Below the pieces are notes generated by a model that saw only the letters and a program-made list of their open reading frames with translations, made no database searches and was not told where the DNA came from. Below are positions 108-30,790 of a DNA stretch of 32,000 nt, piece by piece. A program made the position numbers and the translations under genes. This stretch comes from Promethearchaeia archaeon (GTDB lineage Archaea; Asgardarchaeota; Lokiarchaeia; Sigyniarchaeales; SOKP01): contig JAWOFX010000175.1 of NCBI GenBank assembly GCA_046497275.1, forward strand, positions 1,993 through 33,992. Direction: 5' to 3'. How positions within the stretch are numbered: position 1 is the stretch's first letter; each line of letters starts with the position of its first letter.

Positions 108-242
108 AACTTTCAAATTTTGGTCTATATTAATTTTTTTTACTTATAATAATTTTATTTTTTTGATAATTGAAGTTTTTCCAAAAATAATTTTAAATTT
201 CTGGATTTATAATTATATAACTAGAGTAAAAAATAATCATAT

Positions 243-248
243 AGGTGA
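243..248 (+). promoter_or_regulatory. Shine-Dalgarno-like AGGTGA ahead of the proposed ATC start of Snf7
   Basis: AGGTGA matches the archaeal anti-SD complement (GGAGGTGA) and lies 7 nt before ATC at 256. GTGA/GGTGA-type sites also precede the peptidase, SAF-subunit and RidA genes in this window. Confidence 0.6.
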
Positions 249-255
249 CTAAAAA

Positions 256-906
256 ATCGGTCTTAAAGATAAACTTTTCCCAAAGAAGGGAAGTGACAAA
301 GATATCACAATAACCAAAGCGAAAAGCCATATTCGAAAACTTGCATTGATGAACAAAAATTACACTAAACGAGCTGAGATCAGTAGAAAGAATGCTAAAA
401 TTGCCTTGAAGCGTGGTGAAAAAAATAGAGCAAAGAACTATTTAATACAATATAAAAGTTATCAAAATAAAATTGACCGAACAAATAATATTCGGTCAAA
501 AATAGAAAGACAAATTCAAGCAATAGAAGAAGGGCAATTGGTTTCTCAAACTGGAGATCTAATGGGCGGAATGAGAGATGAACTTAAAGAAATTGCTACT
601 ACTGCATCACCTACCAGAGCAGCGGAAATAAATGAAGATGCTGAATTATATGTCACTGAAATAGAGGAAGCTGCAGAAATATTAGCTGGAGATCCAGAAA
701 TTGATTTGGCTATTGATGTGAATGATGAATTAGAACAATTAGAGACGGAAATGTTGCTTGAGCAAGGAGGCACAATGCCTGAAGTCCCTTCAGACGAATT
801 ACAATATATCTCTGAATTTGATACGGAATTAGAAGAACCTGAACTTCAAGATAAAGAAAAGTTAGAGAAAGAAATTGAAAAGTTAAGAAAAGAATTAGAA
901 GAATAA
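256..906 (+). CDS. snf7: ESCRT-III / Snf7-family protein, Vps20/32/60 class (about 216 aa; proposed non-canonical ATC start, ORF track starts at TTG 346)
   Basis: Basic N-terminal helical hairpin (AKIALKRGEKNRAKNYLIQYKSYQNKIDRTNNIRSKIERQIQAIE), acidic C-terminal half, MPEVPSD (MIM2-like) and a terminal amphipathic helix LEKEIEKLRKELEE. The in-frame upstream extension IGLKDKLFPKKGS resembles the typical MG-x-F-x-K Snf7 N-terminus. Confidence 0.88.
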   Translation: MGLKDKLFPKKGSDKDITITKAKSHIRKLALMNKNYTKRAEISRKNAKIALKRGEKNRAKNYLIQYKSYQNKIDRTNNIRSKIERQIQAIEEGQLVSQTGDLMGGMRDELKEIATTASPTRAAEINEDAELYVTEIEEAAEILAGDPEIDLAIDVNDELEQLETEMLLEQGGTMPEVPSDELQYISEFDTELEEPELQDKEKLEKEIEKLRKELEE

Positions 907-1012: not shown

Positions 1013-2038
1013 TTATTTGAAACTTCTTAGTGCAAAAACCATATTATTTAATTTCCGTATGGTAATCTCATAGGCAAAATTCTCTTCGAATGCATCCTTT
1101 AGGGGTTTAAATCCACAATCTGGTTTAATAATTAAATTTTCTTCTCCATATAATTCAATTGCTTTCTTTATAGTTTGTTTAATTGTTGAAGTCTCCTCAA
1201 CGTAATCTTCTATTTTACCATCTTTTTTTGGTTTAATCTTTGTTTCTACTGCCCCAAATCCAAGAAATTTATCATGCTGTTCAAAATGTGATTTTTCAAA
1301 AATGTCATAATTCTGTTCATTTGTTTGAAATTCATGATCTAAGATATTCACATTTGTTTCTAAGAGAATATCTCTCAAATTTGGGTTTAATTGACCACAG
1401 ACATGAATTGAAGAAAAACTAGATATACCTGAAATTGCTTTATTTAAGATCTCGATAATAAAATCTTTTGAATGAAACATTGTTCTTCGACCTACAATGA
1501 GACCTAAAATTGGCTCATCCATTGAGATAATATCGATACCCATATCATTATAAGCTTTTCCAATTTGTTTCATTATTTCTGCTAATTTCTCAACGATCCA
1601 TCCAACCATAATCGCTTTTGGTTCCTTAAAGAGCATAGGTTTTTTTCCCTCAGCCAAAGATCCTTTTAAAATGATCTCACTAGCTAAGGTAAATGGTCCA
1701 GTTAAACATGCTTTAGTTCCCTTGATTTTCTGTTTAAGAGTAGGATTATTATTCAAATATTCAACCAAAAATGTTCCATATTCTAAAGCAACGGATTTTT
1801 TTGGAAGCTCAAAATCACCATTTAAAAAAAATTGGTTATTATTCTCTTGTAGTTCTGGAATTGTTTGGGATAATGGGGTTAAAAATTGAGAGATCATTGA
1901 AACCAATTGCGGATAACATGGGAAATCGATTCCAATATTGATTTGGTCCTGAAAAGCGCGCTCCATGTTGACTGGGGTATTTTCCAAGGGGATACTCCCT
2001 ACAACCGTTGTTGATAACCCAAGATCTTCCACTTTCAT
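1013..2038 (-). CDS. metE: Cobalamin-independent methionine synthase, catalytic-domain-only (core MetE) family
   Basis: 341 aa with TTVVGSIP at the N-terminus, KACLTGPFTLA, ISMDEP, and Zn ligands in IHVCG (HxC), DHEF (E) and PDCGF (C). It lacks the folate-binding N-terminal half. Confidence 0.8.
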   Translation of the reverse strand: MKVEDLGLSTTVVGSIPLENTPVNMERAFQDQINIGIDFPCYPQLVSMISQFLTPLSQTIPELQENNNQFFLNGDFELPKKSVALEYGTFLVEYLNNNPTLKQKIKGTKACLTGPFTLASEIILKGSLAEGKKPMLFKEPKAIMVGWIVEKLAEIMKQIGKAYNDMGIDIISMDEPILGLIVGRRTMFHSKDFIIEILNKAISGISSFSSIHVCGQLNPNLRDILLETNVNILDHEFQTNEQNYDIFEKSHFEQHDKFLGFGAVETKIKPKKDGKIEDYVEETSTIKQTIKKAIELYGEENLIIKPDCGFKPLKDAFEENFAYEITIRKLNNMVFALRSFK

Positions 2039-2092: not shown

Positions 2093-4246
2093 TTAGCTAA
2101 AATATTTCTTATTATCAAACTTGCGCCCAATATTTCGTATCGACTCATCCTCTCTGATTCGACCATCTAGATTTCGAATTTTTTTATTTATTATGTAGAG
2201 GTCTTGCTTAAGATTTTTAAACGCTCTTAAATAATCCACTTCAGTGATTTTTCCTTCATCAAACTTGGAATCTAAGTTTTTTAAAGTTTCAATAATACTG
2301 AATCTTTCTTTTTTTAATTCGAGCATATGTTCTTGGTTTTCATCTTTTTCTTCAAAAAGACCATCGTTTTGATACTTGCTTGGATCAAATGATAAATCAT
2401 TATCTCTAAAAAATTCTGATAGATAATTTCGATTATAATCATGAATAGAAGGATTATTCCTATTTGTATTATATAATGATTCAGAAGATCGATTTAATGA
2501 TTCTGCGTTTATAAAATCGCTCAAAGCTCTGTCAAGATTACTCTTCACATTATATCCTTCTTTTTGAGCTCGTTCCAATTTTTTCATCAAAATATTCTTA
2601 TCTTCAGGATTTAATGGATTTGGTTGGTTTCTAGCAAAAATTCGTGAATCGTAATTCTGATATCTATTTGGATATAATATATTTTGGAATTGGAAATTGT
2701 TTGGATCATTAACATAATTCGGATGATTTTGATATTGATGAGGATATTGATGGGGGTATGAGGAGACCGGTTGATAGAGGTGGGGCTGATTATTTTGAAG
2801 AGTTGAATATTCTTGTGAATAAGGCGGTATATTATAGGGATTTATAAAATAATTTGGTGGAGGGGTTGAATTTTGGTTATAATGTTGATTCTGATTATTT
2901 CCTCGAAAATAATCATTTTGAGGAGGAAAAGTATTATTATTGTGATAACTATTGGGAGAATTTTGAAACCTAGTAGTTCTTTGGTGTTGAAGACCTAAAT
3001 GATCTGAGTCGAAATTTTTCTCATTATTGAGTTTGCATTTTAAACTGAAGAACGAATTGATTCCATCTTCGATAAAATTCTTTAAATTCGTAAGATCTAT
3101 TTTTAAATTTTCAATTATATTAGCAGATTTTTTGTCATAAATAGCAGTTTCATCGAAATTTCTTGCGAGTAAAATATATTCAATAACTCTTGAAATTGCT
3201 TTATTTGGGAGAGAAAATTCATATTCCCCATAGGCGAATTTTACAAAAAGTCTTTTGAATAACTTTCCTTTTTCTTTGATTCTCTGAAGATCATCTACAG
3301 GGGCTTTAAATATTAGTTCTTGCTTTGTCTTTAATAATCCATATTCATGAACAAATGATAAATCTAAATTGGTAATAAATAAGATGCCTTTATTTCTTTT
3401 GAATATATCTTGGTAATTTGTACCATTGGATAATTTAGCATTGATCGCATAAACTGGTTTTTCATCTTCTGCTAAATTTATAAACCTTTTGTACTCAGTA
3501 AAATATTTATTAATCTTTTCGATAAATGAGAGGTTTTTTTTTATAGAATCGATATCTTTATTCATTGATTCTATATTACTTTCAATAAAATCTCTAATTG
3601 ATTGATTACTTCTATATAGATTTTCTAATATTCCTTCAATAATTCTTATGCTAGTATTAGGTTGAGAATAAATGTCAAAAAAGTATTCTTTATTAAGCGA
3701 AAGGTGATGAAAATGAATACTTATTTTCTCCATCATTTGATCTTCAATATATTTCACAAGTTTAAACAAAGAAAGGAGTTCTGCTTCCATTTTAGGGAAA
3801 TGATAGCATTTTATAGGTGGAGCTCTTGCTTTTTTTATTTTTTGTCTTAACACATAAAGTCCATTAACAAGATCCCTGAGAGGATCGATAAAATTTCGTG
3901 TTTCTTTAATTAATTCTAAAAAAGACTGTTCTAATTTTTCTTTTTTTTCATAAATATTAATAATCCGATGAGAATGGCATTTTGGACAAGATTTAATATA
4001 TTGTGTGATCTGGATTACATTATCACTCTCACAGTCTTTACATATTTTTATTGTTTCACCTTTCTTAGAATCGGATTCCTTTATGTCTATATTTTTTGAA
4101 TTACAATCTTGGCATACAAATGTTTCTACTTTATCATCATCTAAACAATCAGAGCAACAACTAGCACCACAATTCTCACAATAATAAGCTAAAGGCTCTC
4201 TTCCTTGGCAGAATCTACAGAAATTTTCTGATTTATGCTCTGACAT
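2093..4246 (-). CDS. Multidomain protein: CxxC Zn fingers, coiled coil, PH-like fold, N/Q/P/Y low-complexity region, C-terminal steadiness-box/SHOCT-like hairpin (putative ESCRT-associated adaptor)
   Basis: 717-aa ORF with ATG and upstream AAAGGT. Six CxxC pairs lie in residues 10-90. The domain assignments are by visual pattern only; the CDS itself is secure, its function is not. Confidence 0.6.
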   Translation of the reverse strand: MSEHKSENFCRFCQGREPLAYYCENCGASCCSDCLDDDKVETFVCQDCNSKNIDIKESDSKKGETIKICKDCESDNVIQITQYIKSCPKCHSHRIINIYEKKEKLEQSFLELIKETRNFIDPLRDLVNGLYVLRQKIKKARAPPIKCYHFPKMEAELLSLFKLVKYIEDQMMEKISIHFHHLSLNKEYFFDIYSQPNTSIRIIEGILENLYRSNQSIRDFIESNIESMNKDIDSIKKNLSFIEKINKYFTEYKRFINLAEDEKPVYAINAKLSNGTNYQDIFKRNKGILFITNLDLSFVHEYGLLKTKQELIFKAPVDDLQRIKEKGKLFKRLFVKFAYGEYEFSLPNKAISRVIEYILLARNFDETAIYDKKSANIIENLKIDLTNLKNFIEDGINSFFSLKCKLNNEKNFDSDHLGLQHQRTTRFQNSPNSYHNNNTFPPQNDYFRGNNQNQHYNQNSTPPPNYFINPYNIPPYSQEYSTLQNNQPHLYQPVSSYPHQYPHQYQNHPNYVNDPNNFQFQNILYPNRYQNYDSRIFARNQPNPLNPEDKNILMKKLERAQKEGYNVKSNLDRALSDFINAESLNRSSESLYNTNRNNPSIHDYNRNYLSEFFRDNDLSFDPSKYQNDGLFEEKDENQEHMLELKKERFSIIETLKNLDSKFDEGKITEVDYLRAFKNLKQDLYIINKKIRNLDGRIREDESIRNIGRKFDNKKYFS

Positions 4247-28801: not shown

Positions 28802-30790
28802 TTATTTATACCAAAAAGGATATAAATTTTGAATTATCGCATTTTTTTTATCAGGGATGATCTCAACTGATTTTTTTATCCAATCGGAAATCCATTGATA
28901 TTTTTGTTTGAATCGAGAGTCCATGAAAATTATAGATCCTTTATCTGTAAGTTTTCGTATCGGTCTTCCTGACGCTTGATTAGCTCTCTGCATTGCAGGG
29001 TAAAGATAAGCGAAATTCCATCCTTGCTTGTCAAATACTTTATCATAATAAGATATTTTCGCATTAATTCGAGGTGTGGGAAGGTGATATGGAACTCCTA
29101 CAATTATAACTCCATTCATAGTTTCTCCCGGATAATCTTCTCCTTCTGAATTCCTTCCTCCACAAACTCCCAAAAGTACACCTCCTTTATCTTGAGATTT
29201 TGACATCGATTTAAAATCTTCGATCATTAGTGAGTTTTCAGAAGCAGAAAATCCGGGTTCTTCAAAAAATAGTTTTTTATTATTGTGTTTAACAATATCC
29301 ATTACATTATTGTCGAGAAGTGCATTTAATACTTTATATGATGCACAAAAAATTCCTACGTTTGCTGGAGTACAATAAAGGACCTCATCGATTTTTTCTA
29401 TAATTTTTTTATACATTGAAGTAGTTCTATTTTCTCTTCTTGTATCTATTCCCTCTGTTATCAGTACTTTAATATTCTTTTTCAAAAAGGGAGATTTAGC
29501 AATAATTGCTTTATACGATTTCCCACTTTGGTTTAATCCTAATAAATTATTATATACATAAGGATTGACCGTTCCAGAAAGATGAAGACTAGCATAACAA
29601 GACTTTAATATAGGAATTGAAATTTCTCTTGGATCTAATGCTATAATTTCCAAAGAAATGTTTCTCTTTTCATTTTTACTCGAAATATTATAGGAAAAGA
29701 AATAACTTTCCAGAGGTTGTGATTCGATCCACTTATACCAAAAATCTGCCAAACTCCCCAAATAATCTCTGGAAATCTCTCCATTTGATACTCTCTCTTC
29801 GTGAATGGAAGTGCTCAAATCGTATAAATCCGTTAAAAAATTTTTAAATTCTGCCACATCATTTAATCCCATTTTGATAATAATTTCATTGAGTAATTTT
29901 TGAGGATTAATTGCTTTTTCATTTACACTTAAAGATTTTTTTTTTTTATCTAAATGAGTGAGTAGAATATTAACAAATCTCTGCATTATTGAACGAGCCC
30001 TATATAACTCCAAGTCGCGAAGACATAATCTTAATGAATAGGGGGAAATCCTAGATGAATTGATTTCAGTGGCAACATCAATCACATTATGGCATTCATC
30101 AATTACTAAAATACAATCTTTTAGTTCTTTACCTATAAATTTTAGGAAAGATTGTCGTATAAATGGATTGAAAATCCACTGATAATTAGAAATCACGACT
30201 CTCATATCTTGGAGAAGAAATTTACTTAAGAAATAGGGACATAATTTTTTCTCCTTACAAATATCAATAAGAACATCAGCATCAAACGGGATACTAAATT
30301 TTTCCGGTGAGATGAGAATAGGTTTATCGACTTTGTCTTTCTTATTAAGAAGATTTAAAAAATGTATACAGTTTTTATTTTTCCTCAAATCGTTACATAC
30401 TGACATAGATTCCCTGGGATCGGCTTTAAGGGATAGAAGGGTCTCGTTTAAGCACATTTCATTTCTCCCCCTAATCGATAAGCCATTAATTTTCAAAGAA
30501 CTGTTTTTTTGTGATAAAAAATCTGAGATTTTAATTAATTCCTTTATAACTCTTGTATTTTGAGAGTGTGTGCGGCAGAGATATAAGATTTTCAAATCAT
30601 TCTCAATAGCAACAGATAAGAGTGCACTTAAGGCGATAACCGTTTTTCCAGTTCCATTTGGAGCAAGTAATAAGATATTCTTTTTTTTTCGGATACTATT
30701 TTCTATCTGCTTTATTATGTGTTCTTGAGAAATTCTGAACTCATCATAAGGAAAAAATTGAGGATATTGTATATTTCTCCACCAAGTAAT
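28802..30790 (-). CDS. xpd: XPD/Rad3-family 4Fe-4S SF2 DNA helicase (about 662 aa; proposed ATT start, ORF track starts at TTG 30595)
   Basis: Q-motif region FFPYDEFRISQ and Walker A APNGTGKT lie upstream of the tracked ORF, in frame. Also CRTHSQ, four FeS cysteines, IDECHN, SGTV, GRNSEGEDY and QASGRPIR. Confidence 0.92.
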   Translation of the reverse strand: MTWWRNIQYPQFFPYDEFRISQEHIIKQIENSIRKKKNILLLAPNGTGKTVIALSALLSVAIENDLKILYLCRTHSQNTRVIKELIKISDFLSQKNSSLKINGLSIRGRNEMCLNETLLSLKADPRESMSVCNDLRKNKNCIHFLNLLNKKDKVDKPILISPEKFSIPFDADVLIDICKEKKLCPYFLSKFLLQDMRVVISNYQWIFNPFIRQSFLKFIGKELKDCILVIDECHNVIDVATEINSSRISPYSLRLCLRDLELYRARSIMQRFVNILLTHLDKKKKSLSVNEKAINPQKLLNEIIIKMGLNDVAEFKNFLTDLYDLSTSIHEERVSNGEISRDYLGSLADFWYKWIESQPLESYFFSYNISSKNEKRNISLEIIALDPREISIPILKSCYASLHLSGTVNPYVYNNLLGLNQSGKSYKAIIAKSPFLKKNIKVLITEGIDTRRENRTTSMYKKIIEKIDEVLYCTPANVGIFCASYKVLNALLDNNVMDIVKHNNKKLFFEEPGFSASENSLMIEDFKSMSKSQDKGGVLLGVCGGRNSEGEDYPGETMNGVIIVGVPYHLPTPRINAKISYYDKVFDKQGWNFAYLYPAMQRANQASGRPIRKLTDKGSIIFMDSRFKQKYQWISDWIKKSVEIIPDKKNAIIQNLYPFWYK

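Follow-up and report, generated by a model that had tools for sequence, protein, structure and literature searches.

Introduction

The closest described relative of the protein considered here is CHMP4-7 of Lokiarchaeum GC14_75 (KKK44605.1; PDB 9FN1), an ESCRT-III subunit that forms helical tubes and deforms vesicles in vitro and whose deposited model begins at residue 15 (PMC11791191). Eukaryotic Snf7 carries an N-terminal membrane-insertion motif, according to the passage of PMC11804906 that cites Buchkovich et al. 2013. Here we describe the start site of the ESCRT-IIIB gene in a 32,000-nucleotide stretch of DNA from a Promethearchaeia archaeon of the Lokiarchaeia (GenBank assembly GCA_046497275.1, contig JAWOFX010000175.1, positions 1,993 to 33,992 of the forward strand), hereafter the window, to which all coordinates refer unless another contig is named. 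The genome, labeled G000, measures 3.85 Mb, has a G+C content of 30.4% and is rated 98.9% complete. Taken as a whole, the data are best explained by initiation of this gene at an ATC codon at position 256, a reading that we consider very probable from the sequence comparisons presented below.

The window protein is a full-length orthologue of GC14_75 CHMP4-7, with which it shares the M-G-L-K-x-K-L-F-P motif, the layout of the helices and a similarly acidic and helical C-terminus. The two differ in that residue 1 of the GC14_75 protein is a methionine that aligns with ATC here, and in that the window protein is known from sequence alone. Like eukaryotic Snf7/CHMP4 and Vps20/CHMP6, the Asgard proteins have a short hydrophobic-basic segment ahead of helix α1, and Gly2 is nearly invariant as in Vps20/CHMP6. 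Unlike the eukaryotic motif, the Asgard motif has a conserved proline (L-F-P-K-K), and its insertion into membranes is proposed by analogy.

Reviews of archaeal initiation list AUG, GUG and UUG only, and the Shine-Dalgarno (SD) sequence is described as not prevalent in the cultured Lokiarchaeon (PMC7531240). In Haloferax, ribosome profiling found approximately 30% near-cognate codons among putative alternative sites, which were set aside (PMC7261190). The nearest Asgard precedent is the tubulin AtubA of Kariarchaeaceae, which was assigned a "rare ATT start codon" plausibly spaced from the ribosome-binding site (PMC13394414). Both AtubA and the protein described here are Asgard eukaryotic-signature proteins deposited N-terminally short, and AtubA was rescued by an upstream ATT. 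However, AtubA is a single case in Heimdallarchaeia that was argued from fold completeness, whereas the evidence here is comparative, selection-based and genome-wide. In the literature that we searched, no systematic description of near-cognate starts in Asgard archaea was found.

Results and discussion

Sequence features of the start site

An earlier note on this DNA, made from the letters and a list of open reading frames (ORFs), had proposed that the gene starts at ATC 256. The features on which it drew are all present in the sequence: an in-frame TAA, the ATC, an AGGTGA 7 nt ahead of it and the absence of a canonical start before 346. The ATC is followed by GGT CTT AAA GAT AAA CTT TTC CCA AAG AAG, and the frame stays open to the TAA at 904-906. 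According to both the ORF list and the sequence, the first in-frame ATG, GTG or TTG is the TTG at 346, directly followed by the ATG at 349. The elements of the locus are as follows.

207-221, forward strand: A/T-rich TATA-like element TTTATAATTATATAA, approximately 35-49 nt upstream of the ATC
243-248, forward strand: SD sequence AGGTGA, complementary over 6 nt to the 16S 3' end of the genome, with a 7-nt spacer (249-255)
250-252, forward strand: in-frame upstream stop TAA, read from the sequence, which closes the frame and is followed by AAA (253-255)
256-258, forward strand: proposed initiation codon ATC, proposed to be read as Met by the initiator tRNA (orthologue position, Met1 of 9FN1, second strain)
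256-906, forward strand: full ESCRT-IIIB (CHMP4-7, Vps20/32/60-like) coding sequence, 216 codons plus TAA (Pfam, 9FN1, orthologues)
259-291, forward strand: N-terminal motif G-L-K-D-K-L-F-P-K-K-G (α0), the presumed membrane-binding tip (conservation in 29 homologues)
292-411, forward strand: predicted helix α1 of the ESCRT-III hairpin, residues 13-52 (AlphaFold2 model maf9bcb051c0b, block pLDDT 66-81)
331-333, forward strand: ATT start of a public 191-residue call, at residue 26 inside α1, whose product P0003 begins MRKLALMNKNY; rejected as the true start
346-351, forward strand: first canonical starts, TTG 346 and ATG 349 (residues 31 and 32, in the middle of α1); ATG 349 is the start of a public 185-residue call

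Because both 16S rRNA 3' ends of the genome read GGATCACCTCCT, AGGTGA constitutes a 6-nt SD match, and its 7-nt distance to the ATC lies within the spacing peak of SD-led ATG genes in the genome. The genome makes modest, though real, use of SD sequences: a match of at least 6 nt precedes 4.8% of 946 unambiguous ATG starts versus 1.65% of internal ATGs. Approximately 2.5% of non-shadow ORFs (about 57 of 2311, counted from a histogram) have at least 31 codons ahead of their first canonical start. Given how rare such long pre-start stretches are, and given the 1.65% frequency of SD matches of at least 6 nt at internal ATGs, the site is unlikely to be explained by chance.

The TATA-like element was judged by eye, as the available sigma-70 promoter and terminator scanner is inapplicable to archaea. 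Five orthologues from sister species have comparable TATA-like runs at approximately 43-60 nt ahead of the start. The element suggests a putative promoter from which a short mRNA leader of approximately 15-25 nt holding the SD sequence would arise.

Conservation of the start position and selection on the extension

Orthologues of ESCRT-IIIB were found in 40 of 41 related genomes, and the alignments start at query residues 1-7. Among the 26 orthologues in which the G-[LI]-K-x-K-L-F-P motif was located, the codon ahead of it is ATG in 16, ATA in five, TTG in three, GTG in one and ATC in one. The start codon is therefore found at the position homologous to 256, ahead of the conserved G-L-K-x-K-L-F-P-K-K, and not at 346 or 349. 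An in-frame stop usually lies 1-3 codons ahead of this start, and in several orthologues it is the TGA inside GGTGA. Four of the ATA cases (G003, G004, G005 and G006) belong to the window's own genus and have no alternative canonical start; their in-frame stop lies 1-2 codons upstream and GGTGA or GGTGG lies 6 nt upstream, with the TGA within GGTGA serving as that stop in three of the four. The orthologues of genus g1 retain GGTGA or AGGTG at 6-9 nt ahead of the start, and the other upstream DNA is not conserved. GGTG/GTGA-type motifs accompany both ATH- and ATG-started orthologues, with no clear contrast by eye.

We compared substitutions between the ATC, ATA and TTG species. Over codons 2-30 the ratio of nonsynonymous to synonymous differences per site (pN/pS) is 0.07-0.32 with pS values of 0.65-1.27, which are saturated, and over the next 120 codons it is 0.07-0.18. 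As judged from these values, purifying selection acts on the 30-codon extension just as it does on the remainder of the gene.

The gene tree places approximately nine changes of the ESCRT-IIIB start codon, all of them inside family f1, to which G000 belongs; all six sequences from families f2 and f3 start with ATG. Two sister pairs differ in their start codons: G000 with ATC and G002 with TTG, and G001 with ATG and G003 with ATA. This pattern indicates that, where near-cognate starts are frequent, the start codon changes readily in evolution.

Scanning metagenome contigs with a degenerate DNA pattern returned an 8.5-kb contig (L032; Ga0209918_1002548, JGI metagenome) from a second strain, which differs from the window at seven positions over approximately 800 bases, five of the seven differences being synonymous. 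The two sequences are identical from well upstream through AGGTGACTAAAAAATCGGT, ATC included, and the single difference inside the extension is synonymous. Because this independently assembled contig carries an identical AGGTGACTAAAAAATCGGT, with ATC and not ATG at 256-258, the ATC is not an assembly error.

The 216-residue product as a B-type ESCRT-III subunit

The product scores 45.5 bits with the Pfam Snf7 profile (PF03357; cut-off 27.3), its residues 23-182 covering profile positions 7-171. The match of the 216-residue form reaches profile position 7, versus position 23 in the short form, a gain of 16 positions. Among solved structures, the product matches chain U of PDB 9FN1 (E 4.5e-93, residues 1-215 against 1-217); the ATC codon aligns with its Met1, and the extension aligns with its residues 1-31. 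The Heimdall ESCRT-IIIB structure 9FTL matches with an E value of 3e-4, and the closest named homologue is annotated as "Vps20/32/60-like protein (ESCRT-III)". Judged by orthology to the characterized B-type Asgard subunit, and not to the A type, the predicted protein is a B-type subunit.

All of 29 homologues share L7, F8, P9 and K11, and conservation reaches at least 90% at G2, K4 and K6. The segment G-L-K-D-K-L-F-P-K-K is included in the protein only when translation starts at 256. By analogy with the N-terminal insertion motif of eukaryotic Snf7 and Vps20, this α0 tip may bind membranes. An AlphaFold2 model built on the 29 homologues predicts a short helix at residues 4-7 and further helices at 13-52, 56-116 (α2/3), 120-143, 156-169 and 198-215. 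The modeled arrangement, an α1-α2/3 hairpin with shorter helices, is that of the ESCRT-III fold. The conserved C-terminal helix at 198-215 is compatible with a Vps4-binding motif.

This gene is the only close copy found in the genome. The second Snf7 gene is an A-type paralogue on contig C39 with 23% identity to ESCRT-IIIB (G000:C39:10270-10902, forward strand; locus L002, 1423-2055). It opens with a canonical ATG-GGA (M-G-F-L-K-D) with no clear SD sequence seen ahead of it, in contrast to the ATC-started B-type gene.

Consequences for public gene calls

The earlier note had anticipated that automated calls would lose the N-terminal segment and about half of α1, and this is what the public calls of 191 residues (from ATT 331) and 185 residues (from ATG 349) do. 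With α1 spanning residues 13-52, the residues of the three downstream starts (26, 31 and 32) all belong to the helix. The calls are cut in this way because the gene very probably begins at the weak codon ATC. We rejected ATT 331 as the true start, as no SD sequence precedes it and conserved coding sequence continues upstream. Public protein sets thus carry ESCRT-IIIB as a fragment of 185-191 residues that lacks the conserved tip and approximately half of α1, and the sister species with ATA starts are probably truncated likewise. Cloning, modeling or counting "membrane-anchor-less" Asgard ESCRT-III proteins from such sets would be misleading. Gene prediction in these genomes should accept ATT, ATA and ATC as starts where they follow a GGTGA-type ribosome-binding site.

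Near-cognate starts across the genome

The gap between the upstream stop and the first canonical start has a heavy-tailed distribution in this genome, reaching at least 40 codons in 37 of the 2311 non-shadow ORFs. In most of the coding-like cases with such long gaps, an ATT, ATA or ATC lies no more than three codons from the stop and the DNA upstream is rich in A/T; approximately ten have an SD match of at least 6 nt. A codon-usage log-odds score of the pre-start regions separates coding from non-coding stretches faintly (+0.20 versus -0.14 bits per codon). The score was too weak and was replaced by an SD-anchored codon census, the extents of Pfam domains and the orthologue series. A site passed the census if a 6-mer SD sequence, a spacer of 4-9 nt and the codon were followed by at least 100 open codons, with a stop at most 12 codons upstream. 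The passing sites were distributed as follows.

ATG: 66
TTG: 20
ATT: 18
GTG: 5
ATA: 5
ATC: 1 (this ESCRT-IIIB gene)
Other 55 sense codons together: 55 of 27,614 sites

Many of the matches to other codons are immediate neighbors of ATH starts. With a reversed motif as control, 11 ATG and six ATT sites passed. ATT is approximately 6-fold enriched over other non-start codons among these SD-led long ORFs, and from the census counts set against the reversed-motif control we conclude that it behaves like TTG, as a genuine start codon.

In at least six genes (L033, L036, L037, L040, L041 and L043), conserved Pfam domains start ahead of any ATG, GTG or TTG in the frame; these genes encode an E2 ubiquitin-conjugating enzyme, a thiolase, an Arf-like GTPase, a pirin, a FAD oxidoreductase and an ABC ATPase. 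Each has an ATT or ATA just after an in-frame stop, and the parts ahead of the canonical codon include the P-loop of the Arf-like GTPase and the dinucleotide-binding motif of the FAD oxidoreductase.

We also considered recoding. For the ESCRT-IIIB gene a frameshift, or an upstream ATG in another frame, is unlikely, as no ATG occurs in any frame within approximately 55 nt upstream. Read-through of the upstream stop is likewise unlikely, as all three stop codons bound such genes and the domains begin right after them.

The window itself holds a further gene with a long pre-canonical stretch. An XPD/Rad3-like helicase (28802-30790, reverse strand) has 65 open codons before its first canonical start, including the Walker A sequence A-P-N-G-T-G-K-T. 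Because the ATT at 30790-30788 (reverse strand) directly follows an in-frame TAG, it is the likely start of that gene.

Near-cognate starts across the family

The gene for V-ATPase subunit D (x-S-F-R-E-I-K-P-T-K; G000:C139:11172-11822, forward strand; L039/L047) has an apparent ACG start directly after a TGA, with GGTGA 9 nt upstream. Near-cognate starts of this gene are found in 11 f1 genomes, with ATT in six, ATC in three, ATA in one and ACG in one, the last being G000. In other f1 orthologues ATG stands at the same position, and the sampled members of the neighboring families f2 and f4 have ATG, GTG or TTG. The E2 gene (x-R-E-E-T-D-Y) has an ATT start after (T)GGTGA in six f1 genomes.

The gene of aIF1, the fidelity factor that proofreads start codons (SUI1; G000:C118:66902-67234, forward strand; locus L105, 1414-1746), reads TGA AAA TTC AAA ATT. 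Its first canonical codon lies past the C-P-V-C zinc knuckle, and the ATT is the likely start. Most f1 genomes have ATT at this position (ATC in one genome) and two f2 genomes have ATA; the other readable f2, f3 and f4 genomes have ATG or TTG. On these comparisons, ESCRT-IIIB is one clear instance of a lineage-wide use of near-cognate starts.

In bacteria, AUH starts are well known, and infC of E. coli, which encodes IF3, has an AUU start with autoregulation. NCBI translation table 11 lists ATT, ATC and ATA as starts. The proposed reading of a near-cognate codon by the initiator tRNA downstream of an SD sequence would resemble these cases, and a parallel to infC exists in that aIF1, a fidelity-factor gene of this lineage, itself starts at AUU. 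The differences are that the initiation machinery is archaeal and eukaryote-like (aIF1, aIF1A and aIF2) and does not involve IF3, and that the codons are spread over many ordinary genes and drift between ATG, ATA, ATC and TTG among species. We do not class ESCRT-IIIB itself as an autoregulated weak start of the infC/eIF1 type; we know of no role of ESCRT-IIIB in translation, and the analogy fits the aIF1 gene of this genome instead.

Beyond the single gene, we regard it as possible, if somewhat short of an even chance, that a lowered stringency of start-codon selection is a lineage trait of one family of Lokiarchaeia. AUU, AUA, AUC and even ACG would then be routine SD-dependent starts, of perhaps one-fifth of the strongly SD-led genes here, and the set-point would be held by aIF1, whose own AUU start is kept family-wide. 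The drift of the ESCRT-IIIB start between ATG, ATA, ATC and TTG would determine how much of the filament-nucleating B subunit is made in proportion to the A subunit, whose gene starts with ATG. Near-cognate starts in this lineage would offer a natural system for how aIF1 and the SD interaction jointly set start-codon fidelity.

Proposed mechanism of initiation

We propose that the ESCRT-IIIB mRNA, which probably has a short leader, is bound at AGGUGA (243-248) by the 3' end of the 16S rRNA of the small ribosomal subunit. Docking at this site would place the AUC at 256-258, 7 nt downstream, in the P site, where the initiator Met-tRNA would start translation despite the mismatch at the third position. 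A weak codon would be tolerated because the family uses AUU, AUA, AUC and occasionally ACG as SD-led starts in many genes, including that of aIF1. The predicted product of 216 residues, beginning Met-Gly-Leu-Lys-Asp-Lys-Leu-Phe-Pro-Lys-Lys, would comprise the basic-hydrophobic α0, a complete α1 and the ESCRT-III hairpin, and its Met-Gly start would permit removal of the methionine. The weak codon probably lowers output compared with the ATG-started A subunit, and, more speculatively, output might respond to the level of aIF1.

Evaluation of alternative explanations

Several observations weigh against initiation at ATC 256. This codon is the sole ATC case in the strict SD scan of the genome, and ATC as a class is not enriched there (one of 739 sites). 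AUC starts are very inefficient in E. coli, and for this reason the yield from the ATC here could be low. ARAGORN returned 13-26 tRNA genes in G000, none with the anticodon CAU, and searches of this genome with anticodon-loop patterns gave nothing convincing; some of its tRNA genes may have unusual introns or be unassembled. The confidence of the AlphaFold2 model is moderate, with a mean pLDDT of 62 and values of 66-84 for the hairpin blocks. The competence of ATC as a start rests on comparative data from relatives, as three genera start V-ATPase D and one starts aIF1 at this codon.

Translation could instead begin at ATT 331 (191 residues) or at TTG 346/ATG 349 (185-186 residues), with 256-330 as an untranslated leader. 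These are the choices of the automated callers and ATG 349 is a strong codon, but the supposed leader evolves like coding DNA (pN/pS 0.07-0.32 with saturated synonymous sites), encodes the invariant L7, F8, P9 and K11, and aligns with residues 1-31 of the solved homologue. There is no SD sequence ahead of 331, 346 or 349, the residue that corresponds to 349 is not Met in the sister species G006 and G005, and all three starts would begin the protein inside α1. We consider a downstream start very improbable. The scarcity of ATC in the strict SD scan, together with its weakness in model bacteria, could also mean that the start was recently lost by a change from ATG or ATA to ATC, and that the gene is silent or yields a truncated product only and is becoming a pseudogene. 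This, too, is very unlikely considering that two strains separated by seven differences, five of them synonymous, both keep the ATC and an intact frame, that four sister species keep a similarly weak ATA with an intact and selected extension, and that the essential V-ATPase D starts at ATC in three other f1 genera. The gene is also the only close copy in a genome rated 98.9% complete, the other Snf7 match being the distant A-type paralogue (23%).

Reinitiation tolerates weak start codons, and an in-frame ORF of 79 codons (13-252) ends directly ahead of the ATC, so that ribosomes terminating at TAA 250-252 might restart 3 nt further on, where a weak codon would suffice. However, this ORF is of low complexity, A/T-rich and contains the TATA-like element. 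Orthologues lack a comparable upstream ORF, their frames being closed 1-20 codons upstream at varying positions and by varying stop codons, and the conserved upstream feature is the SD sequence. Termination-reinitiation is accordingly rated remoter than either of the preceding explanations. Least probable of all is a sequencing or assembly error that hides a true ATG: a single-base change at a site following a run of six A residues would be enough, but the independently assembled JGI contig of a distinct strain has the same bases, and the sister species carry ATA and not ATG. Initiation at ATC 256 thus remains the reading that we prefer.

Neighboring genes

Downstream of the ESCRT-IIIB gene, positions 1013-2038 (reverse strand) encode a protein of 341 residues with weak matches to the catalytic domain of cobalamin-independent methionine synthase and to URO-D, pointing to a MetE-like/methyltransferase fold. 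In at least one relative (L013, G018), an ORF occupies the same convergent position directly downstream of ESCRT-IIIB. No Pfam family matches an ORF of 717 residues (2093-4246, reverse strand) that converges with the ESCRT-IIIB/MetE-like pair. This ORF contains N-terminal CxxC zinc-ribbon-like repeats, a long low-complexity middle rich in N, Q, P and Y, and a coiled-coil-like C-terminal tail.

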